A stretch of 64,000 bases of DNA from Gammaproteobacteria bacterium (GCA_965261165.1 OZ253445.1:1369082-1433081); one strand, 5' to 3'; positions 5,756 to 60,340 are shown, counted from the stretch's first letter. The notes: generated from the sequence alone by a model not told the origin. A program made the numbers and translations.

Positions 5756-5787
5756 TTGGGGGAATGCCAGCGGGGGAGAATATAGTA

Positions 5788-6483
5788 ATGGTTACAAAAA
5801 TTACAAAAGATATTGTTGGTTTTGAAGTTACTAAAAAAAGCACTGAAGAAGAAAAGCTAGAAGCAGCAAAAAAAGAAGCGTTAGATAATGTTGTGCAAAT
5901 GCATGAGAATGTTGAACGTCCGGAAATGCTCTTGGGTTCGACTTATAAAATCAGCACGCCGTTATCTGATCATGCCTTATATGTGACAGTGAATGATATT
6001 ATTCTTAATCTGGATACGGAGCATGAACTACGCCGCCCATTTGAGATGTTCATCAACTCAAAGAACATGGATCACTTCCAATGGATCGTTGCCCTGACAA
6101 GAATTATTTCAGCCGTGTTCAGAAAAGGTGGCGATATAAATTTTCTCGTTGAAGAATTACGCTCGGTGTTTGACCCTAGCGGTGGCTATTTCAAAAAAGG
6201 CGGCAAATTTATGCCTTCATTGGTAGCCGAGATTGGTGATGTACTGGAAAGCCATTTACGTATGATTGGCATGATGACAGATAGCGGTCTGGACGAGCAT
6301 CGGAAAAAGCTGATTGATGAAAAACGTGCAGAATACGAAAGCACCTTGAAAAATGCAGAAGCGAGTTCCTCAAGAGATTTTCCTGATGGCGCAAATCTAT
6401 GTATGAAATGTAGCACCAAGGCTACGATTTTGATGGATGGGTGCATGACTTGTCTCAACTGCGGTGAGTCTAAATGCAGCTAA
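5788..6483 (+). CDS. nrdJ: class II ribonucleotide reductase small fragment NrdJb (C-terminal zinc-ribbon part)
   Basis: The ORF track gives 5764..6483. The ATG at 5788 has the better RBS (GGGGGAG plus a 9-nt spacer). The C-terminus is CMKCSTKATILMDGCMTCLNCGESKCS, a CxxC...CxxC pattern, as in the C-terminal domain of class II RNRs. It lies immediately downstream of nrdJa. Confidence 0.7.
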   Translation: MVTKITKDIVGFEVTKKSTEEEKLEAAKKEALDNVVQMHENVERPEMLLGSTYKISTPLSDHALYVTVNDIILNLDTEHELRRPFEMFINSKNMDHFQWIVALTRIISAVFRKGGDINFLVEELRSVFDPSGGYFKKGGKFMPSLVAEIGDVLESHLRMIGMMTDSGLDEHRKKLIDEKRAEYESTLKNAEASSSRDFPDGANLCMKCSTKATILMDGCMTCLNCGESKCS

Positions 6484-6551: not shown

Positions 6552-7816
6552 GGACTTGTCGGTTAATAGCCCGAAAGCATGAGATAATAGCCGAAATTCA
6601 AAACGGGTCTTATTGATGCGCAAACGCCAACAAAACACGCTGTTTATAGCACTAGACTGTCTGGTGGTAGCAAACCATCCCTAGCCTAAGCTTGAGGCCT
6701 TATTGTCATTCGATGAGCTGGCCAAACCTTAGGTTAAGCTCTATTCGGTTAAAGGTCATAAAGAAAAGGGGTTGCCTTTGGCTTACGCGCCCTGGTGTTA
6801 CAATTCATGGAAGATAGTAGTGATCGTGAAATGGAACGTTTTTTGCGAATGGATTTTTTTGCAAGAGAACACTTCTGGAACATGCTGTTACCCATTGGGC
6901 TTAGGAGAGAAGACCCCAGATCACAGTAATCTTGGTGATTGTCGAAAACGTGATGATCTTCGAGAACGCTTGGACACAGAAAACTGAATGACGGTTCTTA
7001 ACCGTGTTGGTGAAGAACTGAAGTCTATGGGTTTAATGCGCCAAGTGTTGACCTTTGTTGCTGCCAGTCACTTAGGTGAGTCAGCTAAGCACTTGGGACG
7101 ATAGAGATCGTGCCATTCAGGCCGGTTTAGAGAAGTTTAATCATAAGACCGCTGAAACAATAACGGTTGCTCAGCAGGCACGCTTTGGTGGTAAGGGCGG
7201 TAACAAGTTTTGCTAGGGCGATAAAGAACACATATTGATTGCTAGGCGAAGTGGTTTAATCAATAAGATTGCGGCTACATCGGCGGAAGTTACCGATGCT
7301 GAAGGGCTTGCCCACGTTGCCCCACAGGAGGTGCTTTTTTTGGTGATAAGGGTACTGTGTGAACCTGGGCAAAACCACACTCAAGCGCCAAGGCTGTCAT
7401 GATGCAACGATCAAGCCAGCCAATATGCAAGGCAAAGAGACTAAATAAAGAGCGTTGGCTTGCAGCCATGCGTTCACCTTATGAACGTGTCTTTGCTCAC
7501 CGTAACCGGCGGGTTGGTTATCGTGGTTTGCAGAAGGTGCAATCTCAGGTAGGCATGCGCACACTGACTTTCAACCGCAAAAGAGTGATGACACTGGGTT
7601 TGAAGACATAGATAGATTGGGTTTTGAAGACATCAATTCAATACCTGCCCAGGGTAAATACTAGGGTAAATCTGCCTTAAATTTGCCTAAAGGGCAGACC
7701 TAAGGCACTAATAGCCTAAAATAGCCCATTGGGACTTAAATAAAGCGGACTATTGTCGTTTATTTGAACCAATATTTGCATCTTGACATTGTTTTTCGAT
7801 TAACCGACAAGGCCTT
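6552..7816 (+). mobile_element. IS5-family-like insertion sequence relic (copy 1), about 1.27 kb, with imperfect terminal inverted repeats and a degraded transposase frame
   Basis: It is near-identical to 35990..37276. The ends are GGACTTGTCGGTTAAT on the left and ATTAACCGACAAGGCC on the right. Internal translated fragments resemble IS5-type DDE transposase pieces (DATIKPANMQGKE similar to DATIIEAPSSTKN; FGDKGH similar to ADxGY; RVFAHRNRRVGYRGLQK similar to the IS5 C-terminal motif). They are interrupted by multiple stops and frameshifts, and no ORF exceeds 77 aa. Confidence 0.6.
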
Positions 7817-10740: not shown

Positions 10741-10863
10741 AAACCTGTGATGTCTAAAGCGGGTAGATTGTATCGTAATGTAAAGGACACGTCATACCCC
10801 AAAACTACTCTTTCAAGTTAGCAACACACAAACTGTCCAGTTTTCATAGTATCCCGAGGAGGG

Positions 10864-11943
10864 GTGCTTATGAGACGGACAGAATGGTTACAGGAGACTC
10901 GATTGATGAGATTCGAGGAAGCTTATAGAGGCTGGACGGAGAGCCATCTAACCCAAGAGGCGGCGGCGTTATTGCTGGGTGTTTGTGCCCGGACATTTCG
11001 TCGCTACATAGATCAATATAAAGACGAGGCCTGGAGAGGGTCTCATCGACAAACGCTTATCGCAGGTAACGCCCTGGTCGACGAGGTCATGCGCATGGTG
11101 GACTGCTATCGCAGCCGACACGAGGGCTGGAATGTAAAGCACCACTACCACGCTTGGTACAAACGAGACGGCAGTCAGCACAGCTACTCGTGGGTAAAAC
11201 AGTCACTGCAAGCGGCTGGTGCCGTAAACAGCGTGATCGGTCACCCTGGTGATCGGTCACCCTGGCCGGGATGATGTTGCATCAGGACGGCAGTCAAGCA
11301 TTTATGGGTACCGGACAGTACTGGGATCTGATTGTCACTATGGATGATGCACCAATGAACCCTGCTCAATGTTCTTCTGCGATGAGGTAAGGAACGCAGA
11401 GCAGTTTTCAGGGTGTTGGTGACGTCATCGAAGGTCAGGGGGGCTGTTTTGCTCTTTGTAGACAGACCGAGGCAGCCATTACTGGACTACGGGAGGCGGA
11501 TGGGAAAGCAGACTAGGCGAACCTGACCCAGTTTGGGCGGGCTATGGGCCAATTAGGCATTGAGATGATCCTGGTCTATTCGCCAGAGGCTAGAGGCGGT
11601 TCCGAGCGTGTATTCAGCACGCACTAGGATCGCCTGGGCAAAGAATTGGCTCTGGGAATTGGCTCTGGTGGGCATCACGGATATAGAAGAAGCCAATACC
11701 CATCTGGCAGAGACCTACCTACCAGCTTACAACGTGGAGTTTACACAGCCGCCGCCAGAAGATGGCTCAGCCTTTGTGGCGTGCCGGGATTTATCGGTGC
11801 TGGATGACATCCTGGGCGAGCGTTTCGAGCGGACGGTGAGAAAGGACAACTATGTGCACTTTGAAGGACGGGTATTGCAGATCCCAGCAGATCGTCACCG
11901 CTGCCATTATGTGAAGGCGAAGATCCGGGTTCTGCGTTTATAG
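10864..11943 (+). pseudogene. ISNCY-family (IS1202/ISPlu15-like) transposase pseudogene, broken into at least 3 frames
   Basis: The N-terminal frame 10864..11274 begins MRRTEWLQETRLMRFEEAY...TFRRYIDQY (HTH). The middle carries HQDGS..WDLIVTMDDA in another frame. The C-terminal frame 11608..11943 reads NYVHFEGRVLQIPADRHRCHYVKAKIRVL. All are typical of ISNCY transposases. A 17-bp tandem duplication (GTGATCGGTCACCCTG x2) lies at about 11237..11270. Confidence 0.6.
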
Positions 11944-12110
11944 CGATGGTAGCTTATCCATTCACCACAGCCCCGGGAGCTGGCAAGGTATGACGCCCTA
12001 AGGTCATGAGCTCTCAGATAAACTACTGGTTGCAGTATTAATGTCTGCGGCTCAGCCGGTAGTTGCGAGGCACCTCTGGGAGCCTTCTAGCAATCAAACC
12101 AAAAGCGGAC

Positions 12111-22289: not shown

Positions 22290-22438
22290 TGTAGATGTAT
22301 TGTGTCTGAATGCTCGATAATGGATAAGTAATAACTAAAACACGCTCATTGAGGGGTTTTATGCTATTGCTGTGACGATTAAAGGAGAATTCTCGCAAAA
22401 TGAAACTGTTTCATACAAACTTTATAAATTAATGCTAT
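22290..22438 (-). repeat. inverted copy of 150-bp repeat family R2
   Basis: The reverse complement is identical, apart from about one mismatch, to 35850..35987. That sequence reads TTATAAAGTTTGTATGAAACAGTTTCATTTTGCGAGAATTCTCC...CATCTACA and contains the palindrome ATGAAAC-AG-GTTTCAT. Confidence 0.8.
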
Positions 22439-25484: not shown

Positions 25485-26576
25485 TTAATCATTTTCGATC
25501 ACAATCTTTGGGAATTTATTTGAGTAGTCTTTTGCCATCAGTGAAAGTCTTGCCGATGATTTTCTGGCAATCTCACGATAGAGCAAAGAGATATCCGAAT
25601 CAGGTTCCATGACAACAGTCGGCTTGCCTTCGTCTGCCCCTTCGCGAATTCTGATATCTAAAGGTAAAGATCCTAATAGATCCACGCCGTATTGTTTCGA
25701 CATTTTTTCGCCACCGCCCGCACCAAAGATATGTTCCTCATGACCACATTGACTACAAATATGCGTACTCATATTTTCAATAACACCTAAGACAGGCACA
25801 CCAACTTTTCCAAACATGTTATGGGCTTTGCGTGCATCTGATAGGGCGATATCCTGGGGTGTGGTCACAATTATCGCAGCACTCACGGGTATCTTCTGGC
25901 AAAGCGTTAATTGAATATCACCAGTACCAGGTGGAAGATCAATAATCAGATAATCCAGATCCTTCCAATTGGTATCACTTAATAATTGTTCCAATGCACC
26001 TGTCACCATCGGACCGCGCCAGATCATCGGTGTGTCTTCATCAATCAAATAGCCAATCGACATAGATTGAATATCGTAAGATAGTTTGGGTTCGGTAGAT
26101 TTACCATCTGCAGAATCCGGTTTACCACTACATCCCAGCATCTTGGGTTGGCTTGGTCCATAAATATCGGCATCAAGAATACCGACCTTGGCACCTTCTG
26201 CCTGTAATGCCAGCGCCAAATTAACTGATGTAGTTGATTTACCAACTCCCCCCTTACCTGAAGCAATGGCAATGGTATTTTTTATTTCTGGTAATATTTG
26301 CACACCCTTTTGCACCGAATGCGAAGTGATTTTAGTTTCAATTCCTACTGAGACATTGCCTATATCAAGGATACTGCTTAGTTCGTCCTTCAATATCTGA
26401 GTCAAAGCTTCATGATAACCATCGGCAGGGAATCCTAAGGATAATGTCAAATCAACATCAGCACCTTTTATTTCAATATTTCTAATAACTCCTGCGGAGA
26501 CCAGATCTTGTCCTAAACTAGGTTCTATATAGCTTTGCAGCTGTGTTTCTATATTTTCTTGTGTGATTTCAGTCAT
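25485..26576 (-). CDS. apbC: iron-sulfur cluster carrier ATPase ApbC/Mrp
   Basis: The product contains IAIASGKGGVGKSTTSVNLALAL and a CxxC motif (CSQCGHEE). Confidence 0.9.
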   Translation of the reverse strand: MTEITQENIETQLQSYIEPSLGQDLVSAGVIRNIEIKGADVDLTLSLGFPADGYHEALTQILKDELSSILDIGNVSVGIETKITSHSVQKGVQILPEIKNTIAIASGKGGVGKSTTSVNLALALQAEGAKVGILDADIYGPSQPKMLGCSGKPDSADGKSTEPKLSYDIQSMSIGYLIDEDTPMIWRGPMVTGALEQLLSDTNWKDLDYLIIDLPPGTGDIQLTLCQKIPVSAAIIVTTPQDIALSDARKAHNMFGKVGVPVLGVIENMSTHICSQCGHEEHIFGAGGGEKMSKQYGVDLLGSLPLDIRIREGADEGKPTVVMEPDSDISLLYREIARKSSARLSLMAKDYSNKFPKIVIEND

Positions 26577-26719
26577 TCTTTAAACAATCCAGATCCTATT
26601 CATGATTCTTATCATGATGGCGATTCTACCTTTTCGCGTCTTTAGCTTCACCCTTAACCTCAACAATGGTAACTTACCCCGCTATTTTTTATAAAGATTT
26701 ATCTCTAAACGGCCTATTT

Positions 26720-28753
26720 ATGACTGATACGCAAAAAACATTACTGGTGACAAGCGCCCTGCCCTATGCCAATGGGTCAATCCATATGGGACACATGGTG
26801 GAATATATTCAAACAGACATCTGGGTGCGGTTTCAGAAAATGCAGGGACATGATTGTTATTACGTCTGTGCAGATGATGCCCACGGCACACCGATTATGC
26901 TTTGCGCCCAAGAAGAAGGTATCAGTCCTGAGACCTTGATCGAGAAGATCAGTCAAGAACATCAAGCTGATTTTGCTGATTTTTCAATCGCTTTTGACCA
27001 TTTCCATAGTACGCATTCAGAAGAAAATCGTGAACTGTCCTGCATGATTTACGAACGCTTGCGTGATGCTGGTCATATCAAAAAACGCACCATCAAGCAG
27101 GCATTCGACCCTGAAAAGGAAATATTTCTGCCCGACCGATTTATTCGTGGTGAATGCCCAAAATGTGGTGCGATGGATCAGTATGGTGATAATTGTGAGG
27201 TTTGTGGGGCGACTTACAGCCCGACAGAACTGATTAACCCTGTCTCGGTAGTATCTGGTGCGATACCTATCGAAAAAGAATCCGAACATTATTTTTTTAA
27301 ACTGCCTGATTTCGAAGACATGTTGCATGATTGGACACGTGCCGGCCATCTGCAAAAAGAAGTCGCCAATAAACTGGACGAATGGTTTGAAACAGGCCTT
27401 CAGGAATGGGATATTTCCCGAGATGAACCTTATTTCGGTTTTGAAATTCCAGAAGCACCAGGTAAATATTTTTATGTCTGGTTGGATGCGCCAGTTGGTT
27501 ACTTTGCCAGTCTGAAATATCTATGTGAGCAGAAGAATCTGGATTTTGACAGTTTTGTCAAAGAAGACAGCAATATCGAGGTTCATCATTTTATCGGTAA
27601 AGACATCGTCTACTTTCACGCACTTTTCTGGACAGCCATGCTTAAGGGCAGTGGCTTGCGTACGCCTACTTCTATTCATGCCCACGGCTTCCTCACCGTG
27701 AATGGCGAAAAAATGTCAAAATCCAGAGGCACCTTCATTAAGGCACGCACTTATCTGGAGCATCTGGATCCTGAATATCTGAGATATTATTTTGCAGCTA
27801 AATTGGGTAATGGTGTTGATGATATTGATCTCAATATGGAGGATTTTCTGCAGAGGGTAAATTCTGATCTGGTGGGCAAGGTTGTCAATATCGCCAGTCG
27901 TTGTACAGGATTCATTAAAAAACGATTTGCAGGCAAACTTGCAGCAGAGATCCATAAACCTGAATTATTTTCGGAATTTGTCAGTGCGGGAGATAGCATC
28001 GCTTCGGCATATGAGGGGAAAGAATATGCCAAGGCCATGCGTAAAATCATAACTCTGGCCGATAAGGCAAATCAATATATTGATGACAATAAACCCTGGG
28101 TAATTGCCAGACAGGAAAATAGCGACGATGAATTACAAGCCATCTGCACCATGGGTCTGAATCTTTTTCGCCTATTGATTATTTATCTCAAACCAGTGTT
28201 GCCTGTAATGGCAGAAAAGACTGAACAATTTCTGAATGTCGAGACATTTAGCTGGGAAGATAGCCAAACTTCATTATTAGCGCATGAAATAAACAAATTT
28301 AAACCGTTGACAATACGCATAAAACAGGAGCATATCGATGCCATGATAGAAGGAAGCAAAGAAGATTTAAGTCCAGCTACAAGCGCTTCGGAAGAATCTG
28401 GACTATTACATGATGAGCCTATTGCTGACATCATGTCTATCGATGATTTCGCAAAAGTTGATTTAAGAATTGCCAAAATTATTAAGGCTGAACATGTAGA
28501 AGGTGCGGACAAGTTACTTCAATTAACGCTGGATGTCGGTGGTGAAATCCGCAATGTCTTTGCTGGTATTAAATCAGCCTATTCTCCTGAAGACCTTAAA
28601 GGCCGACACACCGTCATGGTAGCCAATCTTGCCCCTCGTAAAATGCGCTTCGGTGTTTCTGAGGGCATGGTACTGGCTGCTGGTCCGGGTGGTAACGATC
28701 TGTTTATTTTAAGCCCGGACGAAGGCGCAATATCTGGTATGAAAGTGAAATGA
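26720..28753 (+). CDS. metG: methionine--tRNA ligase
   Basis: The product contains the HMGH and KMSKS motifs, a CPKC...CEVC zinc knuckle and a C-terminal tRNA-binding (EMAP-like) domain. The start was set at the ATG at 26720 ([19 protein letters not shown]). Confidence 0.9.
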
Positions 28754-28784: not shown

Positions 28785-29354
28785 ATGGAAGAGATCTTTC
28801 TTGTTCTGATTAGTTCTGCTCTGATTAACAACATCGTTGTTGGCCATGTCATCGGCGCTGACCCTGCATTAGTATCAATTCAAAGATGTAATGTCACTCG
28901 CGGTATCTCAAGCATCATGCTCATCCTGTTACCAGTCACAACTGTCATTGCTTCTGCAATGACACGAGTCATACTAATTCCATTACAGCTAGAATATATG
29001 CAAACCTTAGCGTTTGTAATATTGATCATTATATTTGTTTCCGCTCTCAGGATGCAGTCTAAACCTTTAAGCAAATATGGTTCTGAAATTTTTCTACCAC
29101 TTGCCGGTATCAATGCAACTGTGCTTGGTACTCTGCTTCTGAATCAACAGCAAGATAACAATTTATTTTTCTCTTTCATTTTTGGTCTGGGTACGGCAAT
29201 TGGTTTCGCATTCATGCTTGCCTTGTTAAATGCGATTAATACACGGTTGGAAATGGCTGATGTCCCAACACCCTTCAGAGGACTTTCCATTACTCTGATT
29301 ACATTAGGTCTGATTTCGATGGCATTCCTTGGCTTTTTAGGACTTGTGAAATAG
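28785..29354 (+). CDS. rnfA: electron transport complex subunit RnfA/RsxA
   Basis: The 189-aa polytopic product contains ADVPTPFRGLSITLITLGLISMAF, typical of RnfA. Confidence 0.85.
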   Translation: MEEIFLVLISSALINNIVVGHVIGADPALVSIQRCNVTRGISSIMLILLPVTTVIASAMTRVILIPLQLEYMQTLAFVILIIIFVSALRMQSKPLSKYGSEIFLPLAGINATVLGTLLLNQQQDNNLFFSFIFGLGTAIGFAFMLALLNAINTRLEMADVPTPFRGLSITLITLGLISMAFLGFLGLVK

Positions 29355-29843
29355 ATGCTTGCCGTTTTCATCGTTTTTCTACTGGCTCTGATAAATGGCT
29401 TCCTTATTTCCATATCTCCCGAATCAACAGCGCAGAAAAACAAGATAGAAGAAATTCTTTCTGCCTTACCACAAACGCAATGTGGTCAATGTAATTACAT
29501 TGGTTGCCGACCCTACGCAGAGGCCATTATTCAAGGCAAGGCCGATATCAATCAGTGTCCGCCTGGTGGCGCTGCAACGATAAAAACATTAGCTAATTTA
29601 TTGGGTCGCCGGAGCAAACCGCTTAACCCTGAAAATGGTTTGGAAAAAGAAAAACATGTTGCCTTAGTTGATGAAGCACTCTGCATCGGTTGCGTAAAGT
29701 GCATTAAGGTCTGTCCCACGGATGCCATACTCGGTGCTGCCAAACAGATGCATTCTGTTCTTAGCAAAGAATGTACCGGATGTGAGCTTTGTATTGCTCC
29801 CTGCCCAATGGATTGTATCAGTATGCAAGTGGTTACAAGTTAA
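29355..29843 (+). CDS. rnfB: electron transport complex subunit RnfB
   Basis: The product has an N-terminal TM segment, a [12 protein letters not shown] cluster and two 4Fe-4S ferredoxin motifs ([24 protein letters not shown]). Confidence 0.85.
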
Positions 29844-29863
29844 GTGAATGAGTAAATAGCAAA

Positions 29864-31375
29864 ATGAACAGGGAAATAGAGAGGGAATTACATTCTTTTC
29901 CAGGCGGACTTGACCTTAGAACCTATAAAAAATTAGCCAATAATAAAGAATCATTAATCACACCGCTTCCAGATAAGATCATCCTGCCATTGCGACAACA
30001 TATCGGCAACCCTTCAGTACCATCACTTAAAATAGGAGATAAAGTTCTTAAAGGGCAAAAAATTGCGCAAGCTGATGGTTACGTCAGTGTCCCTGTACAT
30101 GCCAGTACCTCTGGAAAAATTATTGAAATCAGTACTTGCCCATCCGCACAAAATCAATCGATAAAAACACCCTGCATAATTATCGAGCCAGATGGCAACG
30201 ATACATGGTTTGATATCGAACCCGTTAAAGATTATCTATCAGTAGATCCAGAAAAACTACAGCACTTGATATGCGAAGCAGGCATGGTCGGTATGGGAGG
30301 CGCAGGCTTCCCAGCACATGTAAAACTAAATGAAGGCACCACCACAGAAGTGGATACATTAATCATCAACGGTGTTGAGTGCGAACCATATATCAGTTGT
30401 GACGATAGAATTATTCGAGAGAAAGCCAACTATATCGTTTCAGGAACACGCATGCTGCAACATGCGATTCAAGCAAAACATTGTGTGATTGCCGTTGAAG
30501 AAGATATGCCTGAGGCCTTTGATGCATTGGATGCCTTGGTTGACGACGATATAGAACTGGTAAAAGTCCCTACACGTTACCCTACGGGTGGAGAGAAGCA
30601 ACTCATTAAAGTTTTAACTGATAAAGAAGTCCCCAGTGGCGGTTTGCCGATCCATATTGGTGTAGTTATGCACAATGTAGGGACAGCCGCTTCTGCTTTT
30701 CGGGCTGTCACCCGTGGAGAACCTCTGCTTTCTCGTTACGTCACCGTGTCTGGAGATATTGATAATCCGCGTAATCTACAGGTCCTACTAGGAACGCCTG
30801 TCGAACATTGTCTCAAGCAAGTTGGTTACCAACAATCTGAAGATGGAATCGTGATCATGGGCGGCCCAATGATGGGTAAGCACGTCCATGATATTTCCAT
30901 GCCAGTAATTAAAACCACAAACAGTATTCTTGTTACTTCAGGTCCTATCCATAGCAAAGAGATGCCCTGTATAAATTGTGGACAATGTATTGATGTTTGT
31001 CCTGCAAAACTACTTCCCCAGGAATTATTCGCCTACGCTCGTATGGGAGATATTCAACAAACACAGGAACTACATTTATTTGATTGTATTGAATGTGGTT
31101 GTTGCGCCTATGTCTGCCCAAGTAATATTCCTTTGGTGCAATATTACAGACAGGCAAAAATTGACATTGCCATCCATGAAAAAAAACAGGTTGAATCCAA
31201 TTATGCTCGCTCTCGATTCGAAGCACGGAACAAACGACTGAACCGCGTGGATGATCGTTTTAATAAAAAGAAAACAAATTTTTCTAAGAAGGAGTCAGAT
31301 GGTCTCGCAGATAAGCAATCGTATATTCAGGCAGCTGTCGAACGTATGAAACAAAAACGTAATAAAGATAAGTAA
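29864..31375 (+). CDS. rnfC: electron transport complex subunit RnfC
   Basis: The 503-aa product contains GMVGMGGAGFPAHVKL (an NADH/FMN-binding-like motif) and two ferredoxin motifs (CINCGQCIDVCP, CIECGCCAYVCP). Confidence 0.85.
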   Translation: MNREIERELHSFPGGLDLRTYKKLANNKESLITPLPDKIILPLRQHIGNPSVPSLKIGDKVLKGQKIAQADGYVSVPVHASTSGKIIEISTCPSAQNQSIKTPCIIIEPDGNDTWFDIEPVKDYLSVDPEKLQHLICEAGMVGMGGAGFPAHVKLNEGTTTEVDTLIINGVECEPYISCDDRIIREKANYIVSGTRMLQHAIQAKHCVIAVEEDMPEAFDALDALVDDDIELVKVPTRYPTGGEKQLIKVLTDKEVPSGGLPIHIGVVMHNVGTAASAFRAVTRGEPLLSRYVTVSGDIDNPRNLQVLLGTPVEHCLKQVGYQQSEDGIVIMGGPMMGKHVHDISMPVIKTTNSILVTSGPIHSKEMPCINCGQCIDVCPAKLLPQELFAYARMGDIQQTQELHLFDCIECGCCAYVCPSNIPLVQYYRQAKIDIAIHEKKQVESNYARSRFEARNKRLNRVDDRFNKKKTNFSKKESDGLADKQSYIQAAVERMKQKRNKDK

Positions 31376-31384
31376 ATAAATATC

Positions 31385-32395
31385 ATGGACAAAATAACAT
31401 CACCTCATATTCATTCGCATGCATCAGTTAATGAAGTAATGTGTCAGGTGATATTTGCGCTTATTCCAGGAATTATCGTATCTATATGGTTCTTGGGATG
31501 GGGCATACTTATTCACGGCTTGCTTGCGGTTAGTTTTGCCTTAGCTTTCGAAGCTATTATGTTGATTCTCAGGAAACGTCCGCTTCATGACTTTATATAT
31601 GATGGCAGTGCTATCATTACCGGTTTGTTATTTTCCCTAACTATTACGCCCTTCGCACCCTGGTGGGTCACGTTATCCGGTATTTTTTTTGCTATTGTTA
31701 TTGCAAAACATCTCTATGGCGGGCTTGGCTACAATATTTTCAATCCAGCCATGACTGGCTACATCTTTGTACTGATTTGTTTTCCAGTCGAGTTAAATTA
31801 TTGGCCGTTAATAGATGGAGATAGCAGTTTCATTGATGGCCTGAAAATAATATTCGTCGGCTTGCCTCATGAAACCTTGGATAGTCTAAGTGGGGCAACT
31901 CCGCTAGCATTTACCAAATCTCAAATCAGTGATATGGCCATGCTTTCTGAATTCTCCAACGGCCCCATATTTGGTGTACTAGGAGGCAAAGATTGGGAAT
32001 GGATTGGTATTGCCTTTCTAGCAGGTGGCGTGTGGTTAATAATAAAGGGAATCATTAAATGGCAAATACCTCTGACCTTGATATTCGTTTTATTTGCACT
32101 GAGTTTAATTTTTCATGGCTATGACCCAGAAAGGTATACCTCATCAGCATTCAACCTGTTTACTGGAGGGACATTACTCGCCGCTTTTTTTATTGCAACA
32201 GATCCTGTCACCGCTTCAGCCACACCGCGTGGGAAAATTATCTACGCCATTGGTATCGGCCTATTAACCTATGTTATTAGAACATGGGGAGGCTACCCTG
32301 ATGGGATCGCTTTTGCCGTGCTAATCATGAATGCTGCAGTACCATTTATTGATAATGTTACACGACCCAATGTCTTTGGCAAAACTACATCATGA
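31385..32395 (+). CDS. rnfD: electron transport complex subunit RnfD
   Basis: The 336-aa membrane protein of the NqrB/RnfD family contains FNPAMTGYIFVLI and SGATPL. Confidence 0.85.
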   Translation: MDKITSPHIHSHASVNEVMCQVIFALIPGIIVSIWFLGWGILIHGLLAVSFALAFEAIMLILRKRPLHDFIYDGSAIITGLLFSLTITPFAPWWVTLSGIFFAIVIAKHLYGGLGYNIFNPAMTGYIFVLICFPVELNYWPLIDGDSSFIDGLKIIFVGLPHETLDSLSGATPLAFTKSQISDMAMLSEFSNGPIFGVLGGKDWEWIGIAFLAGGVWLIIKGIIKWQIPLTLIFVLFALSLIFHGYDPERYTSSAFNLFTGGTLLAAFFIATDPVTASATPRGKIIYAIGIGLLTYVIRTWGGYPDGIAFAVLIMNAAVPFIDNVTRPNVFGKTTS

Positions 32396-32997
32396 ATATT
32401 TCAACTAAAGAAATAATCCTTTTTAGTATTATCGCAGCTCTATGTGCAATTTTTTTATTGTTTAGCCATGAGCTGACCAAGGAACGTATTTCTGAAAATA
32501 TAAAAATGCAAAGGTTGCAGGTAATTACTGCAGTCATGACAGATGATTTTGATAATGATATTTACCACGATGTGAAACTTATTGATTATACGGATGATTC
32601 TGGAAACAAATTAACAACCAACGCCTACAGAGCACGAAAATCTGACAACTCTGTCGGTGTAGTCTTTATGCCCATCCTTGCCACAGGTTATAACGGTTCA
32701 ATTCAGTTATCGATTGGTATTCTTGAGAATGGTTCTATATTTGGCGTTCAAGTATTGTCACATCATGAAACAGAAGGTCTTGGTAGCAATATTCATCAGG
32801 ACGAGACGGACTGGTTGAGTAATTTTGCACAGCAGTCTTTCGATATCACTACAATGGGACAATGGACTGTCAAAGATAAATCTGGCAAATTTGATCAGCT
32901 GAGTGGCGCAACAATTACCTCTTGTGGTGTTATCAACGCTGTTAAAAATAGTCTAAAACTGTACATGACCAATCAGGACACCTTGTTTCTAGATTAA
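32392..32997 (+). CDS. rnfG: electron transport complex subunit RnfG
   Basis: The product has an N-terminal TM segment and an FMN-binding domain signature (SGATITSCGVINAV). It overlaps the rnfD stop. Confidence 0.8.
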   Translation: MNISTKEIILFSIIAALCAIFLLFSHELTKERISENIKMQRLQVITAVMTDDFDNDIYHDVKLIDYTDDSGNKLTTNAYRARKSDNSVGVVFMPILATGYNGSIQLSIGILENGSIFGVQVLSHHETEGLGSNIHQDETDWLSNFAQQSFDITTMGQWTVKDKSGKFDQLSGATITSCGVINAVKNSLKLYMTNQDTLFLD

Positions 32998-33237
32998 GGT
33001 TTTTCAGACAATTTATTGAGATATGGAAATAAATACTTGAGGGTAAAGATTATGACGCTAACCGAAGACCTACCTGATTCACCGAAGAAGATGTTGTACA
33101 TCAACGTAAGCTTGCAAAGACAACTCTTGCATTTATCTTTGCAGTCAATGATCTGCCATGTAAAAATTTAAGACAAAACTATCAGACAGAACGATTCTCG
33201 TTTCTGGTATTTAAAACGCCCGTAGACTCTGAATGAT

Positions 33238-34362
33238 ATGTCATTAGCTATATCAGAACTTGTTGCACAAGCTAGCTCAGGTGACCTTGATACTCAGCTC
33301 CAGCTTGCAGAATTATATGAGAGCGGGTTTGGTATGCCTGTTGATTTTGCTCAGGCTACCTATTGGTATCGCAAAGCTGCGAAGGCAGGATCGGCAAAGG
33401 CACAGAATCAATTAGGATTGTTCTTTATCAATGGCAAAGGCGTAGTACAAGACAATGCAAAAGCATTTCTTTGGTTCTCTTTATCGGCAAATCAAGATTA
33501 TGATAGTGCCCAGGCAAACCTAGCTTGGTGCTATCAATGTGGCATTGGCGCGGAGAAAGACTATGTAAAAGCCTTTAAATGGTATTTAAAAGCTGCAAAT
33601 AATGGGCATGCTGGGGCCAGATATAATCTGGGATACATGCATGCACATGGTCATGGCACCGATAAAAATTATACAGACGCCTTTCGATGGTATGCCCGAG
33701 CCGCTAGACAAGGGCACGTAAAAGCACAACTGAATGCCGGGCTAATGTGCATGAACAGTCAAGGAACAGAACAAAATTATGAACAGGCATTCGAGTGGTA
33801 TCAAGATGCTGCTATGCATGGATATGATAAGGCTCAATATAATCTTGGACTTTTATACCATCACAGTCTTGGCGTTGAGCAGGATTATGCCAAGGCGGCG
33901 AAATGGTTTCAGAAGGCGGCTGAACAGAGCTACGCAAAGGCAAATTATCAACTGGGGAAAATCTATCTGGAAGGGCTTGGCTTTCCTTCAGATGATGTAA
34001 AGGCAGCCAAATTTTATCAACTAGCCGCTGATGCTGGTTATGCCAAGGCGCAGTACCGAATGGGGCGGCTTTACCAAAAGGGCTTGAGTGCAGATCAAGG
34101 CGAAAAGACTGCCTACAACTGGTTTAGAAAGTCAGCAAAGAAAGGATATTTAAAGGGTCAATATGCCACCTCAATACACCTAGCAAAAGGGCTTGGCGTT
34201 ACTAAAGATTATGTCAAGGCATATGCTTGGGCGCTACTCGCCAACGAATCAAAAAATCCTTATGCCAAAAAACTATTATCTAAAATTAGCGCAAAATTGA
34301 CTGAGTGCCAAATCATTGAGGCTAGGGCACTTGCGGGAAAATGGTATGATGAGCAAAGTTAA
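33238..34362 (+). CDS. Sel1-repeat (TPR-like) protein
   Basis: It has about 9 tandem Sel1 repeats (AxxWYRKAAxxGxAxAQxxLGxxY). Confidence 0.75.
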   Translation: MSLAISELVAQASSGDLDTQLQLAELYESGFGMPVDFAQATYWYRKAAKAGSAKAQNQLGLFFINGKGVVQDNAKAFLWFSLSANQDYDSAQANLAWCYQCGIGAEKDYVKAFKWYLKAANNGHAGARYNLGYMHAHGHGTDKNYTDAFRWYARAARQGHVKAQLNAGLMCMNSQGTEQNYEQAFEWYQDAAMHGYDKAQYNLGLLYHHSLGVEQDYAKAAKWFQKAAEQSYAKANYQLGKIYLEGLGFPSDDVKAAKFYQLAADAGYAKAQYRMGRLYQKGLSADQGEKTAYNWFRKSAKKGYLKGQYATSIHLAKGLGVTKDYVKAYAWALLANESKNPYAKKLLSKISAKLTECQIIEARALAGKWYDEQS

Positions 34363-34377
34363 CTAACTTTGAAATAG

Positions 34378-35808
34378 TCATAACACTGGAGAATTGATAG
34401 TCGGTGATACTTTATTTTTTCCCTCGCCATTTTCCCAATTATGCTGTTCATCAATTCTTTTAGTTTCAACATTTTTCCATTTCAGAATGTCATAATAGCG
34501 TCTAATATTTTCCACATAAGTCACAGGTTCGCCCCCTCTGGCATGGCCATGCTCAGTTTTCTGATGCCATTGCTCATCTGCTAACAAAGGTAATCTTTCT
34601 CTTACATCCGACCATTTATCAGGATCGTCGCCCTGAGATTGGGTTAATATTCTGGCATCTTCCAGATGCCCAAAACCTACATTGTAGGCAGCAAGAGCAA
34701 GCCATAGCCTATTCTCTCCCTGAACCCTTTCCGGTATTTTATTTATCATTTTAATCAGATAACGTGCACCCCCTAGAATGCTCTGTTCCGGATCGAGTCT
34801 GTTCTCAACACCCAATGATTTAGCTGTATCTGTTGTTAACATCATCAACCCTCGTACGCCTGTAGAAGATTTTGCTTCTGGATTCCAGTGGGATTCCTGA
34901 TAACTCATTGCTGCCAGGAGTAGCCAATCCAGTTCTGTTTCTCTGGCTGATTTTATAAATAGATTTCTGAATTTCGGCAGGTTGTTATGAATACTCTCTA
35001 TAAACACACGCGTATCAATATAATCAAAAGATTTTGCATGCCTGTAATAACGGTTGATTAATTTATCCAACGAACCATCATTATTAATGCGTTTGAAAAA
35101 ACTTTCAACCGCATTACCTAGTGAGCGATCATTATTTCGTCGATATACCCATGCGACAGGTAATTCCCCGGTGATATCGAAAGCAACCCTGACTTCAGGA
35201 AAGATATAACGATACATGGCTACCCAATTAGAATCCGCAATTGCAATTGGCGCATTTTCATCATTTACCATCTTGAGAATCTCTGTCATGCTCTTATTTT
35301 CAAGCACGCGCCAAGCAAGATCCGGATGATAAAAACTTATTTTTTTTAACAGTGTTTGATAAGACTCATCTTCACCAATAATGATCTCATCTTCTTTGAG
35401 GTATGCAATTGATCTTGGTTTTCTATTTTTCTGATGATAAATGAGCTGTCTCTTCGCCGTAATATAAGCTGGGGCATATTCAAGCGTATTGTTAGGGTAA
35501 TCAGATAAGGCTAATGCGGAAGAGCCTATATGGGCTTTATTATTATTGATCAGTGAAGACACATCATGCTTGTTTTCCGCAATAATTAAATTCAAATCGA
35601 GGTCCAGACTATCAGCAAACATGCTGGCCAATTCGTATTCAAGACCTTCGGCCTTACCATCTGAACCTTTATAGTAGGTTAGTGGACTTTCTACAGTGAC
35701 GAACCGTAACTCGCCAGACTCACGGATTTTTTCCAGTAGTGTCTTCTGATCACTACAAACCGAAAGCGCCAATACGCAGAAAATAAATAATAGAGACCTT
35801 TGCATCAT
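34378..35808 (-). CDS. mltF: membrane-bound lytic murein transglycosylase F
   Basis: The product has a signal peptide, a solute-binding-protein-like domain and an SLT domain (AAMSYQESHWNPEAKSSTGVRGLMMLT). Confidence 0.8.
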   Translation of the reverse strand: MMQRSLLFIFCVLALSVCSDQKTLLEKIRESGELRFVTVESPLTYYKGSDGKAEGLEYELASMFADSLDLDLNLIIAENKHDVSSLINNNKAHIGSSALALSDYPNNTLEYAPAYITAKRQLIYHQKNRKPRSIAYLKEDEIIIGEDESYQTLLKKISFYHPDLAWRVLENKSMTEILKMVNDENAPIAIADSNWVAMYRYIFPEVRVAFDITGELPVAWVYRRNNDRSLGNAVESFFKRINNDGSLDKLINRYYRHAKSFDYIDTRVFIESIHNNLPKFRNLFIKSARETELDWLLLAAMSYQESHWNPEAKSSTGVRGLMMLTTDTAKSLGVENRLDPEQSILGGARYLIKMINKIPERVQGENRLWLALAAYNVGFGHLEDARILTQSQGDDPDKWSDVRERLPLLADEQWHQKTEHGHARGGEPVTYVENIRRYYDILKWKNVETKRIDEQHNWENGEGKNKVSPTINSPVL

Positions 35809-35849
35809 TCAAAACCGCTGAATAAAGCGTACAAACAATATCATTATTT

Positions 35850-35987
35850 TTATAAAGTTTGTATGAAACAGTTTCATTTTGCGAGAATTCTCCTTTAATC
35901 GTCACAGCAATAGCATAAAACCCCTCAATGAGCGTGTTTTAGTTATTACTTATCCATTATCGAGCATTCAGACATAATACATCTACA
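35850..35987 (+). repeat. 150-bp repeat family R2 (forward copy), abutting the left end of IS relic copy 2
   Basis: It is near-identical to the reverse complement of 22290..22438. Confidence 0.8.
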
Positions 35988-35989
35988 AG

Positions 35990-37276
35990 GACTTATCGAT
36001 TAATAGCTCGAAACATGAGATGACCCGACATGCAAAACGGGTCTTATTGATGCGCAAACACCAACAAAATAGGTTGTTTATAACACTAGACGATCTTATA
36101 GCAGCAGAGCATCCCTAGCCTAAGCTTGAGGCCTTATTGTCATTCGATGAGCTGGCTAAACCTTAGGTTAAGCTCTATTCGGTTAAAGGTCATAAAGAAA
36201 AAGGGGTGGCCTTTGGCTTACGCGCCCTGGTGTTACAATTCATGGAAGATATGAGCGCTCGTGAAATGGAATGTTTTTTGCGAATGGATTTTTTTGCAAG
36301 AGAATGTTCTTTGCAAGAGAACATTTCTGGAACATGCTGTTACCCATTGGGCTTAGGAGAGAAGACCCCAGATCACAGTAATCTTGGTGATTGTCGAAAA
36401 CGTGATGATCTTCGAGAACGCTTGGACACAAAAAACTGAATGGCGATTCTTAACCGTGTTGGTGAAGAACTGAAGTCTATGGATTTAATGCGCCAAGTGT
36501 TGACCTTTGTTGCTGCCAGTCACTTAGGTGAGTCAGCTAAGCACTTGGGACGATAGAGATCGTGCCATTCAGGCCGGTTTAGAGAAGTTTAATCATAAGA
36601 CCGCTGAAACAATAACGGTTGCTCAGCAGGCACGCTTTGGTGGTAAGGGCGGTAACCAGTTTTGCTAGGGTGATAAAGAACACATATTGATTGCTAGGCG
36701 AAGTGGTTTAATCAATAAGATTGCGGCTACATCGGCGATAATAACCGATGCTGAAGGACTTGCTCACGTTTGCCCCACAGGAGGTGCTGTCTTTGGTGAT
36801 AAGGGGCACTGTGTGAACCTGGGCAAAACCACCATCAAGCGCAAGGGCTGTCATGATGCCACGATCAAGCCAGCCAATATGCAAGGCAAAGAGACTAAAT
36901 AAAGAGCGTTGGCTTGCAGCCATGCGTTCAGCCTATGAACGTGTCTTTGCTCACCGTAACCGGCGGGTTGGTTATCGTGGTTTGCAGAAGGTGCAATCTC
37001 AGTAGGCATCCGTGTACTGACTTTCAACCGCAAAAGAGTGATGACACTGGGTTTGAAGACATAGATAGATTGGGTTTTGAAGACATCAATTCAATACCTA
37101 CCCAAGGTAAATACCAAGGCAAATACTAGGGTAAATCCGCCTTCCATTTACCTAAAGGGCAGACCTAAGGCACTAATAGCCTAAAATAGCCCATTGGGCC
37201 TTAAATAAAGCGGACTTATTGTCGTTTATTTGAACAAATATTTGCATTTTGACATTGTTCTAGATTAACCGACAAG
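35990..37276 (+). mobile_element. IS5-family-like insertion sequence relic (copy 2), about 1.29 kb
   Basis: It is colinear and near-identical with 6552..7816, including the same frame disruptions. Its ends are GGACTTATCGATTAAT and ATTAACCGACAAGGCC. A few small indels separate it from copy 1, for example a GAATGTTCTTTGCAAGA duplication. Confidence 0.6.
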
Positions 37277-50400: not shown

Positions 50401-51116
50401 ATATTAGCATTAAGGTGTCATCAAAAGGAAAGAATACACTCCAACTTAAACATGGGTTGAGTGGACAGGCCAAACTTGCCGTAACAAAAGGTATTTTGCG
50501 TGGTATTGATATCAGGAAAACTCTGGAACAAGCGGAGGTGTTGCTTGAGAGCAAGCGACTTGGGACAGTGAAGCAAGGTGGTGAAACCCGATTCGAGCAA
50601 TTAACGGGCACATTGAATATCAAGGATGGTGTGGTTAAAAATGATGATCTGTTAATGACGGCGCCTGGTTTCAGGGTTAATGGTGGTGTTGATAAAAGAG
50701 ACACGCTCGGGAATCTTCGTAATAACTCTATTAAATATAACCTGAGCGTTGCTGTCGTCGAAGAAAACGTAGTGCGCGGCGAAGAAAATTATAATATTGG
50801 TGGTTATGTGATTCCTATTAGATGCCGTGGCTCATTGGACGATCTTGCCGGAGCCTGTAAACCTGATTATGGGAAGCTTCTGAGTGCGGCTGTTCAAAAA
50901 GGTGCGCTCGATAAATTAGGGGAAGTAATTAATATAGGCATTTCAGGTAAAAACGAATCAACTGTGGATTCTGGCACAACAAGCACTGGCACAACAAGCA
51001 CTGGCACAACTACGACAAAAGAATCATCTCAGCAGGAAGTAACACCAGAGTCGAAAGATCCTGCAAAGGAACTGATCGATAAAGCGCTGGAAGGTGTCTT
51101 CGATAAACTATTTTAG
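47469..51116 (+). CDS. AsmA-family outer-membrane biogenesis protein, unusually long (1215 aa) with internal module repeats
   Basis: It has an N-terminal TM anchor plus an AsmA N-domain ([30 protein letters not shown]). Several roughly 150-200-aa segments recur ([15 protein letters not shown]...; ..[16 protein letters not shown]..). It carries an AsmA-like C-terminal region and a (GTTST)x3 low-complexity tail encoded by a 15-bp tandem DNA repeat at about 50975..51020. Confidence 0.75.
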
Positions 51117-52159
51117 TGACCAATTTGTTCTCAGATAAGTTAGTTGCATGGTTTGATATTTGTGGCAGACATGATTTGCCCTGGCAACAGGAACCAGCTC
51201 CTTATCAAGTCTGGCTTTCCGAAATCATGTTGCAACAAACACAAGTGGCGACTGTCATTCCCTATTTCAATCATTTTATAGAACAATTTCCCGATATAAA
51301 GCTACTTGCGAATGCAAACATTGATGAGGTTCTAAGTCTTTGGACTGGTCTTGGGTACTATGCGCGAGGGCGGAATCTACATCATGCTGCGAAAATAATT
51401 TGTAATGATTTTGATGGGAATCTTCCTGCCGATAAAGAAAAGCTCTTAACATTACCTGGCATTGGACGCTCAACTGCTGGCGCAATCATGGCGTTGGCTT
51501 TCGGACAACACCATGTCATTCTTGATGGTAATGTAAAACGAGTACTGTGCCGTTTTTATGCAGTGAATGGTTGGCCAGGAAAGCCGGCAGTGGAAAAACA
51601 TTTGTGGCAATTAGCAGAGGATCTTACTCCGAAAAAGGATGTTGCTAAATACACTCAGGCGATAATGGATTTGGGTGCAACCGTATGTACACGGTCAAAG
51701 CCACAATGTAATATTTGTCCTGTATCAAAAGAGTGTCTTGCCAGAAAGCAAGAATTACAACATAAATACCCAGTATCCAAACCAAAAAAAATAATTCCCT
51801 TACGCAAGATAATTTTCCTCTTATTGGAAAACAAGGACGGTGAAATATTGATTCAAAGGCGTCCTGCAGCAGGGATATGGGGTGGCTTATGGTGCTTTCC
51901 GGAATGCTCGCTTGATGATGATATTGAAAAATGGCTGCTGACTGAAACGGGTCTTAGTGGAACTATTATCAGAAAATTATCGGTGATAAAACATACGTTA
52001 ACGCATTTCCGTATGGAAATTTTACCCATCCATTTAAAAGTAAAACGATGTAATAATGTAAAAGAGAAGGACGATCAGCAGTGGTGTTTAACTGATGGTG
52101 CCTTAAAATTTGGCATTCCAACACCAGTAAAGAAAATACTAAAGATAATCGCAGAATAA
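51116..52159 (+). CDS. mutY: A/G-specific adenine DNA glycosylase
   Basis: The product has an HhH-GPD domain and a 4Fe-4S cluster loop (CTRSKPQCNICPVSKEC), plus a C-terminal NUDIX-like domain. Confidence 0.9.
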   Translation: MTNLFSDKLVAWFDICGRHDLPWQQEPAPYQVWLSEIMLQQTQVATVIPYFNHFIEQFPDIKLLANANIDEVLSLWTGLGYYARGRNLHHAAKIICNDFDGNLPADKEKLLTLPGIGRSTAGAIMALAFGQHHVILDGNVKRVLCRFYAVNGWPGKPAVEKHLWQLAEDLTPKKDVAKYTQAIMDLGATVCTRSKPQCNICPVSKECLARKQELQHKYPVSKPKKIIPLRKIIFLLLENKDGEILIQRRPAAGIWGGLWCFPECSLDDDIEKWLLTETGLSGTIIRKLSVIKHTLTHFRMEILPIHLKVKRCNNVKEKDDQQWCLTDGALKFGIPTPVKKILKIIAE

Positions 52160-57033: not shown

Positions 57034-57308
57034 ATGTATGAGTCCACCACATATTGCACTTCCCGCGTGGCTGAACATTGTCTTGGTCTGTTTCCAATTG
57101 ATAATCTCTCTGTGCAGCATCTATTTCAAACAATGATTTATATCCTACTTAAAGGCATATCTGCGAACGAACCTTGGGCAGTTTTTTCCAGGAATTTTTT
57201 TTCAAGACTTTAATTTCCAAGACATGACGAAATAATCTTTAAGGTCTTTAGAATGGTCTTATTTTACCTGTTTTGGTAGAATTAGTGTGAATTATGCAAA
57301 AGGTCTCT
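57034..57308 (-). repeat. repeat family R3, copy A (inverted relative to copy B)
   Basis: Its reverse complement aligns with 60048..60340, with about 85-90% identity over shared blocks by eye. Two internal indel blocks separate the copies. Confidence 0.75.
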
Positions 57309-60047: not shown

Positions 60048-60340
60048 AGAGACCTTTGCATAATCCACACTAATTCTACCGAAACAGGTAAAATAAGACC
60101 ATTCTAAAAACCTTAAAGATTATTCATCCATATACTGGGAAAAACTGCCCAAGGTTCGTTCGCAGATATGCCTTTAGTAGGATATAAATCATTGTTTGAA
60201 CTAGACGCTGTACAGAGAGATTGTCAATTGAAAACAGATTAAAACAATGTTCAGCCATCTTTATGCTTCTCGGCATCCCCGCCCTAAAGAAGTGCGGCTT
60301 CAGCCGCGCAGAAAGTGCAATATGTGGTGGACTCATACAT
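60048..60340 (+). repeat. repeat family R3, copy B, in the coq7 / deaD intergenic region
   Basis: See copies A and C. It contains the shared core AAAAACTGCCCAAGGTTCGTTCGCAGATATGCCTTTAGTAGGATATAAATCATTGTTTGAA and a copy-specific insertion of about 57 nt with a GCGGCttcaGCCGC hairpin. Confidence 0.75.

Follow-up and report, generated by a model that had tools for sequence, protein, structure and literature searches.

A divergent rnf operon without rnfE in a clade of uncultured marine Gammaproteobacteria

Why does an rnf operon that is complete from rnfA to rnfG stop short of rnfE? The question is raised by a stretch of 64,000 nucleotides of a gammaproteobacterial genome (GCA_965261165.1 OZ253445.1:1369082-1433081; hereafter the window, with positions counted from its first nucleotide), in which other genes follow rnfG where rnfE and nth were expected. 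An earlier note on this DNA proposed that the operon had been truncated by adjacent mobile DNA, leaving a complex that is non-functional or uses a paralogue of RnfA, or else that rnfE is encoded elsewhere. We consider it likely (probability about 0.75) that the window carries a lineage-typical rnf operon without E, from which rnfE departed long ago, in which both cluster-binding cysteines of the RnfA protein (here RnfA*) have been replaced while the rest is intact and under selection, and whose complex would function without the canonical step from RnfB via the [2Fe-2S] cluster to RnfG.

In Rnf complexes an intramembrane [2Fe-2S] cluster is bound by two cysteines of RnfA and two of RnfE, and the electron that it receives from RnfB is passed to RnfG. 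Every electron crosses the membrane by way of this cluster, whose redox state drives conformational switching. To our knowledge, all Rnf and Nqr complexes characterised so far use it as the relay that connects RnfB with RnfG. The two RnfA cysteines (Cys25 and Cys113 in the numbering of 7ZC6) have been called invariant and their region strictly conserved (PMC9588780), and a 2025 review describes the membrane cofactors of Rnf as strictly conserved (PMC12174285).

The five rnf genes of the window lie on the + strand, contiguous and in canonical order (28785-32997), as the earlier note had stated; the open reading frames (ORFs) and the family matches agree with it. The first gene, rnfA* (28785-29354, 189 amino acids; PF02508), encodes a divergent RnfA orthologue without both cysteine ligands of the [2Fe-2S] cluster. 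It is followed by rnfB (29355-29843, 162 amino acids; PF04060 and Fer4), in which the N-terminal transmembrane (TM) helix, the FeS domain and two 4Fe-4S motifs are present, by rnfC (29864-31375, 503 amino acids; RnfC_N, Complex1_51K and Fer4; NF003454), by rnfD (31385-32395, 336 amino acids; PF03116 and TIGR01946) and by rnfG (32392-32997, 201 amino acids; FMN_bind and TIGR01947), the last gene of the operon. All five ORFs are intact, and their length is conserved in all members of the clade described below. A scan for promoters and terminators around the operon found sites no more frequently than expected by chance.

Using E. coli RsxE as a query (the E. coli Rsx proteins were taken from NC_000913), tblastn against the 64-kb window gave no match (best E = 0.15), whereas the RsxA, RsxB, RsxC, RsxD and RsxG queries did match. 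A tblastn search of the same window with Nth found only a MutY-type gene at 51116-52159 (HhH-GPD and NUDIX_4). Profile hidden Markov models (HMMs) of RnfE and RnfA, applied to every stop-to-stop ORF in the window, had rnfA as their sole match; the absence of a match to the RnfE profile is meaningful because the same profile detects the most divergent RnfE found in this analysis at 83 bits. By tblastn and profile HMM the six-gene set is therefore incomplete in the window, with A, B, C, D and G present and RnfE absent. The 240-bp spacer after rnfG, said to encode nothing RnfE-like, has no match to RnfE or Nth.

Layout of the locus in relatives

A scan with RnfD, limited to one genome per species, yielded 80 loci, which were annotated by tblastn and are referred to here by locus number (L002 and so on). 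Among the canonical loci (RnfA identity to E. coli RsxA of 60-78%), most have the order (apbC)-metG-rnfABCDGE-nth, so the canonical gammaproteobacterial order metG-rnfABCDGE-nth given earlier is true of most retrieved loci whose RnfA retains both cysteines. All loci in which RnfA is divergent (identity to RsxA of 28-42%) end at rnfG (L002-L014, L017-L021, L024, L025, L028, L041, L042 and L044), and the same layout was found in the gene tables of L084, L166, L167, L169 and L170, which were retrieved via a protein database. In total, more than 30 loci of an uncultured gammaproteobacterial clade (at least 27 in the scan and five more) have the order metG-rnfABCDG with no rnfE within 10 kb. The surroundings of 27 relatives (482 kb in total) contained no Rnf-Nqr family ORF besides rnfA* within 10 kb of the operon. 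The divergent-RnfA loci form one clade in trees of RnfD and of RnfA, which are single-protein neighbour-joining trees without support values.

What the window holds (metG-rnfA*-B-C-D-G) is thus a divergent rnf operon in the form usual for its lineage, a deep clade of uncultured marine Gammaproteobacteria. In relatives, rnfABCDG without E is the rule at the same locus (at least 27, and L084, L166, L167, L169 and L170), which refutes the claim that rnfE was cut off by adjacent mobile DNA. Full-text literature searches found no description of rnf operons without E.

When the region downstream of rnfG was compared with that of relatives, the layout without E proved common to the clade, and the next gene there was DUF484. 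The order in the closest relatives is DUF484 (PF04340), a TM2 protein of 70 amino acids, an ATP-binding cassette (ABC) exporter (- strand), an APH-family kinase (- strand), a Sel1-repeat protein (+ strand) and mltF (- strand). L166 has a whole, undisturbed version of the window neighbourhood from cysG to mltF, and the intact arrangement is also present in L170. In the window itself, the spacer holds a relic of DUF484 (33052-33239, + strand), of which codons 1-15 and approximately 76-137 are left; the two pieces are in different frames and end at the start of the Sel1 gene. Compared with the DUF484 protein of L002 by tblastn, the spacer was 52% identical over amino acids 76-137 (E = 2e-16) and 60% identical over amino acids 1-15, and blastn against L002 gave identities of 76% and 67%. 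A deletion of about 3 kb just after rnfG thus took the rest of DUF484, the TM2 gene, the ABC exporter and the APH kinase, and not rnfE-nth. This deletion is the only local lesion, and it joined the ancestral Sel1-mltF pair to rnfG.

The Sel1 gene (33238-34362, + strand; PF08238, eight Sel1 repeats) has orthologues upstream of mltF in L005 (55% identical over 412 amino acids) and L008, and mltF (34378-35808, - strand; NF008112, 555 bits) has the same position and strand in L004, L005, L008, L166 and L170. Both are ancestral neighbours of the operon in the clade, as seen in L005, L008, L166 and L170. The Sel1-repeat protein, mltF on the opposite strand, the R2 repeat and copy 2 of the relic of an insertion sequence (IS) were all found where the earlier note had placed them, but its claim that the Sel1 gene, mltF and the IS relic took the place of rnfE does not hold: the deleted DNA was the 3' part of DUF484 with the TM2, ABC and APH genes.

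These observations bear on an IS insertion or recombination event that would have severed rnfE-nth here and crippled the complex. Such an event would fit the transposase relic and the 139-nt repeat 2.9-3.0 kb downstream of rnfG, and a deletion did happen directly after rnfG. We nevertheless regard it as highly improbable, given that the same layout without E occurs in more than 30 loci that do not have this IS, that the lost DNA was DUF484/TM2/ABC/APH, that the operon is under purifying selection (see below) and that, seen from the operon, the transposase relic sits beyond Sel1 and mltF, with these ancestral neighbours in between. The absence of rnfE is no recent mishap brought about by mobile DNA. 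The junction of rnfG with DUF484 is conserved in two sub-clades, which indicates that the departure of rnfE, together with nth, from its place behind rnfG is far older than this genome.

Upstream, the synteny apbC(-)-metG-rnf is found in canonical and divergent loci alike, where the sequence reaches far enough. In the window, metG (26666-28753, + strand; PF09334, E = 7e-155) lies 31 bp 5' of rnfA* and is preceded by the conserved upstream neighbour apbC/mrp, encoding an Fe-S cluster carrier ATPase (25485-26576, - strand; PF10609 and PF01883).

RnfA* and the other subunits

RnfA* of the window is 37% identical to E. coli RsxA. Alignment with RsxA and RsxE shows GADP in place of the motif GLCP (Cys26 to Asp) and INATVLG in place of TNCAVLG (Cys114 to Ala). 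Cys26 was missing in all 26 divergent RnfA proteins, being replaced by Asp in 18, by Ser in seven and by Lys in one, and Cys114 was missing in most of them. By comparison, 46 RnfA proteins (45 canonical ones and the divergent RnfA of L071) retained Cys26, and all 46 had Cys114 as well. A search of a database of 5.8 billion proteins placed the RnfA* family in 82 clusters, 77 of which carry Asp26 within a G-x-D-P motif that is nearly invariant. The single Lys26 case is L081, where rnfE-nth still follows rnfG. L071 has a very divergent RnfA (34%) and RnfE (30%) with all four cysteines retained. L071 and L081 are possible intermediates.

Despite these replacements RnfA* is, judged from profiles and a structure model, still an RnfA that is predicted to retain the RnfA fold and membrane orientation. 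It scores below the NCBIfam cut-offs for the RsxA equivalog (131 versus 240 bits) and for TIGR rnfA (121 versus 229 bits), and well above that of PF02508 (73 versus 23.8 bits). A profile of the RnfA* family searched against the PDB matched RnfA chains at 1.6e-52, NqrE at 1.5e-37 and RnfE/NqrD at 7e-13 or weaker. An AlphaFold2 model of RnfA* (predicted local distance difference test score 75), compared by Foldseek, gave TM-scores of 0.68-0.73 with RnfA/NqrE and of 0.43-0.55 with RnfE/NqrD. The polar motifs of the broken helices are retained (NN, and N before position 114), and the lysine plus arginine (K + R) bias is +4 in the window, with a clade mean of +5.2 and a minimum of +3 (n = 26).

The K + R bias decides on the possibility that RnfA* forms an antiparallel, dual-topology homodimer in place of the RnfA/RnfE heterodimer, a return to the presumed ancestral state. 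RnfA and RnfE derive from one duplicated gene and have inverted orientations (PMC12174285), and there is a single family member at the locus, both of which would suit a homodimer. With the bias of RnfA* at least as one-sided as that of canonical RnfA (+3.6), we rejected this candidate and hold it to be very unlikely. Dual-topology proteins, in work attributed to Rapp et al. in 2006, reportedly have a K + R bias near zero. The suggestion that an RnfA paralogue is in use likewise found no support, as no second Rnf-Nqr gene was found in the window or near the operon of 27 relatives and the bias of RnfA* is strongly one-sided.

Within the sub-clade of the window, the ratios of nonsynonymous to synonymous substitution (dN/dS, Nei-Gojobori) were 0.125 for A*, 0.150 for B, 0.099 for C, 0.096 for D and 0.177 for G, all of them approximate values with many pairs near synonymous saturation. 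RnfA in canonical loci of the Methylophaga type is the most constrained subunit (dN/dS 0.03); the constraint on RnfA* is relaxed yet clearly present. With dN/dS of 0.10-0.18 and all ORFs intact, the earlier claim of a non-functional complex is not borne out.

The remaining subunits keep their cofactor motifs. RnfB retains both 4Fe-4S motifs and the FeS domain (PF04060) across the clade, and the C-terminal W..W..P tail seen in the canonical RnfB of the retrieved loci is deleted. RnfC of the window has the NADH/flavin mononucleotide (FMN) loop GMGGAGF and the cluster motifs CINCGQCIDVC and CIECGCCAYVC; the loop and both clusters are retained across the clade. The acceptor motif for covalent FMN (S/T-G-A-T) is present in RnfD (LSGATPL in the window; kept in the clade except L015 and L019) and in RnfG (LSGATIT in the window; SGAT kept in every clade member), so both have a predicted flavinylation site. 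RnfC exceeds its equivalog cut-off (NF003454, 625 versus 345 bits), while RnfB, RnfD and RnfG are above the TIGR subfamily cut-offs (200 versus 69, 382 versus 207 and 148 versus 102 bits) and below those of the Rsx equivalogs. Of the residues that are invariant in canonical proteins, the clade has lost 34 in RnfA (of 189), 12 in RnfB, four in RnfC, two in RnfD and six in RnfG. Because the lost positions fall mostly in RnfA and RnfB, the remodelling is concentrated in these two subunits, those of the step from RnfB to the cluster.

Cysteines specific to the clade were noted in TM helices of RnfD and RnfG. In the members L002-L044 (window numbering) they occur at RnfD position 45 (24 of 26; the window itself has Gly) and RnfD position 132 (19 of 26), and nearly all members have one in RnfG, at position 18 or, in L024, L025, L028, L035 and L044, at position 15. 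All of these cysteines are absent from canonical proteins; they may be chance hydrophobic substitutions or a new site.

Some members lack rnfC. The sub-clade L010-L014 and L017-L020 has the order metG-rnfA*-rnfB-rnfD-rnfG, with rnfB adjoining rnfD and no rnfC within 10 kb, and in the rnfC-less sub-clade (L011-L020) dN/dS was 0.07-0.13 for A*, B, D and G. A near-complete, recent deletion of rnfC is present in L003 (1520-2200) and L007, whose RnfD is 81% identical to that of the window; in L003 a 60-codon ORF (2013-2195) still matches the N-terminus of the window RnfC. The RnfB ORF of L003 and L007 begins after the usual N-terminal TM helix (139 amino acids). In L035, a complete chromosome (OZ252091.1), rnfC, rnfD, rnfG and mltF are present, no RnfA-family ORF was found within 10 kb, and there are two separate upstream stretches that resemble RnfB (1794-2189 and 5661-6055); the operon has apparently been rearranged.

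The operon could also be a decaying remnant without a functional complex in a shrinking, symbiont-like genome. The genome shows signs of erosion in its size of 2.1 Mb and in the relics of transposases and of DUF484, rnfC has been deleted in L003 and L007, and RnfA has lost 34 otherwise invariant residues. Decay is hard to reconcile with every member having intact ORFs of conserved length, with dN/dS of 0.07-0.18 over a divergence that is saturated at synonymous sites, with B, C, D and G retaining all their cofactor motifs, and with the near-invariance of Asp26 itself (77 of 82 clusters). Pseudogenisation was rejected on dN/dS and the intact motifs, and we give decay very little weight.

Fate of rnfE and a possible electron path

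A single ancient loss of rnfE in the whole clade was rejected, since members with a divergent rnfE (rnfE*) were found. In L082/L083 (uncultured Candidatus Thioglobus sp., GCA_900180375.1), nth and the gene of a 191-amino-acid Rnf-Nqr protein, both on the - strand, are divergent from rnfA*(Asp26)BCDG-apbE. This RnfE* of L082 is shortened and only 19-30% identical to any other RnfE; its first cysteine is kept and the second is Ser. L165, the sister of L082, has an intact orthologue of 180 codons (48-49% identical), in which Ser replaces the first cysteine and the second is present. Between L082 and L165, the proportions of nonsynonymous and synonymous differences in rnfE* were pN 0.34 and pS 0.71, the latter saturated, which resembles RnfG. 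In L168, a 190-kb contig of the Joint Genome Institute, the order is metG-rnfA*(Gly26, Ser114)-BCDG, two inserted genes, rnfE* with both cysteines gone, and nth. The cysteines of RnfE* are thus not conserved, and rnfE* is always joined to nth (L082, L165 and L168, with a 4-bp overlap in L082), as is rnfE in L066. In L082 (12450-13400) and L165 (15237-16316), the gene next after the operon is apbE, encoding a flavin transferase, and not DUF484. Neither operon is still beside metG, and nth is flanked by a PP2C-FHA pair, also found in L168 at a greater distance from nth.

L082 and L165 are sister to the sub-clade of the window in both the RnfA and the RnfD tree. The rnfG-DUF484 junction is common to the window sub-clade and the more distant group of L010, L084, L169 and L170. 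Because the junction is shared by these two groups while L082 and L165 retain rnfE*, the simplest reading is that rnfE*-nth was already out of the operon in the common ancestor and survived elsewhere.

The RnfE profile, run against the 5.8-billion-protein database, had canonical RnfE for all of the best 120 of its 8000 matches. The divergent RnfE of L071 as a query gave 15 matches, none of them assigned to the complete genomes of the clade, a weak negative. A metagenome scan with an alignment headed by the RnfE* of L082 returned only canonical RnfE at approximately 30% identity, using a pattern (G[LI]CP[LI]LAV...) that RnfE* itself does not match.

For the genome of the window (2.13 Mb) we slightly favour an rnfE*-nth encoded elsewhere, because L082 and L165 retain rnfE* and the orientation of RnfA* is fixed and RnfA-like; this preference follows from phylogenetic and structural reasoning, the search having covered the 64-kb window. 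True loss, with rnfE absent genome-wide and RnfA* acting without an RnfE partner in a unit A*BCDG (A*BDG in the rnfC-less sub-clade), is a serious possibility that falls short of even odds. It would agree with rnfA* being the sole Rnf-Nqr ORF in the window and within 10 kb in the 27 relatives, as well as in five more relatives by gene tables, with the loss of the cluster ligands, by which the best-known reason for an A/E pair is gone, with the stepwise gene loss known in the clade, where rnfC was lost at least twice, and, weakly, with the L071 query result. It is opposed by the intact, constrained rnfE* in the sister loci L082 and L165 and by the shared rnfG-DUF484 junction, whose ancestor already had a surviving rnfE*-nth elsewhere. 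With its polar broken-helix motifs and fixed orientation, RnfA* as the lone half of an inverted pseudo-dimer would also be structurally awkward.

Several points weigh against the reading proposed at the outset. The saturation noted for dN/dS is one of them, and another is that rnfA and rnfD are linked, so the agreement of their trees is not independent. Seven loci whose RnfA retains its cysteines also have no adjacent rnfE: six (L031, L036, L037, L048, L051 and L068) have none in the retrieved sequence, and in L066 rnfE-nth lies 7.9 kb downstream of the operon. Non-adjacency alone therefore says little. The state of L003 and L007 may reflect an ongoing erosion of the system in some lineages, and RnfA* may have an unconventional metal site that uses Asp26.

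If the preferred reading of an old departure of rnfE and a functional complex is correct, the canonical path from RnfB via the [2Fe-2S] cluster of A/E to the FMN of RnfG would be unavailable, because the four-cysteine site cannot form. Electrons would then most probably enter from cytoplasmic Fe-S clusters via RnfC, RnfB or both, pass over the RnfD flavins (riboflavin and FMN) and reach the FMN of RnfG on the periplasmic side. This chain (RnfC/RnfB-RnfD-RnfG) is proposed because it is the simplest fit to every variant seen (A*BCDG and A*BDG, with or without E*). In the solved structure, RnfA and RnfE each contribute one TM helix to a four-helix bundle that is completed by the TM helices of RnfB and RnfG (PMC9588780). 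RnfA*, with RnfE* where present, might be kept as a scaffold free of a cluster; alternatively, RnfA* could be an ion-handling module with the conserved intramembrane Asp26. NqrA, when compared with RnfC, offers a precedent of cofactor sites being lost while the subunit stays as a structural part (PMC4014512).

With the canonical RnfABCDGE complexes (ferredoxin:NAD+ oxidoreductases) of Clostridium tetanomorphum (7ZC6), Azotobacter vinelandii (8AHX) and Acetobacterium woodii (9ERI) the operon shares orthologous A, B, C, D and G subunits, and with canonical gammaproteobacterial loci the gene order and the adjacency to metG. The RnfA fold, the flavinylation motifs of RnfD and RnfG and the Fe-S/NADH motifs of RnfB and RnfC are also those of canonical Rnf, whereas rnfE, both RnfA cysteines, the C-terminal tail of RnfB and, in some clade members, rnfC are missing. 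E. coli RsxABCDGE, a system that reduces SoxR and whose operon is followed by nth, provides the nearest named NCBIfam equivalogs for all five window proteins. The identity is nonetheless only 34-47%, the RsxA, RsxB, RsxD and RsxG equivalog cut-offs are not reached, rsxE-nth is not at the window locus and the cluster cysteines are missing in the window. The Na+-translocating NADH:quinone oxidoreductase (Na+-NQR; NqrABCDEF) has a homologous membrane core (NqrB/RnfD, NqrC/RnfG and NqrE/RnfA), but it keeps the four-cysteine [2Fe-2S] site of NqrD/E, has NqrF instead of RnfB and reduces quinone; RnfA* is closer to RnfA (1e-52) than to NqrE (1e-37). The system is an Rnf derivative that lacks two features by which the family is currently defined: all six genes at the locus, and the cluster cysteines described as invariant.

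More broadly, and tentatively, since we put the odds somewhat against it, this widespread clade may run an Rnf-derived complex without the intramembrane [2Fe-2S] cluster, with many members, possibly including this genome, also being without RnfE and even without RnfC. If true, this would be a minimal RnfA*-B-D-G module of flavins and Fe-S clusters, with an electron path and a physiological role unlike those of any characterised Rnf. The clade represents a natural knock-out in which the ligands were lost and the other cofactor sites were kept under selection. It lets one ask what role the A/E module has beyond the cluster, whether RnfB can feed RnfD/RnfG directly and what the minimal functional core is. 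Annotation pipelines call these proteins RnfA/RsxA, and metabolic reconstructions may wrongly assume a working ferredoxin:NAD+ pump.

Repeats and relics of mobile elements

The R2 repeat (139 nt) is present at 35849-35987 and as an inverted copy at 22290-22428 (99% complementary). The pair brackets 13.4 kb with cysG, dcd, apbC, metG, the rnf operon, Sel1 and mltF, and is a possible substrate for inversion of this segment. One R2 copy abuts copy 2 of the degenerate transposase relic (36025-37216, + strand), which is 89-98% identical to copy 1 (6591-7751). Both copies (approximately 1.2 kb) have stops in all frames and many frameshifts. A stitched translation was 38% identical over 98% of its length to an annotated transposase on a plasmid of Candidatus Bandiella woodruffii (tblastn, E = 6e-36), and a Pfam search with the stitched relic gave no match. 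Duplication probably happened after the element had died, unless it is mobilised in trans.

Between bamE and fur, the window contains a GC-rich island (10860-11950; 54.6% versus approximately 42% elsewhere) with an ORF containing a helix-turn-helix (weak matches to DUF1670 and HTH_23) and an ORF of 111 amino acids without a family; it looks like a third, unrelated mobile-element relic. Finally, two adjacent pairs of inverted repeats of 85-87 nt (87-89% complementary) at 57068-57300 and 60055-60257 flank the genes of a PhoU_div protein, a PHO4 phosphate transporter and COQ7.

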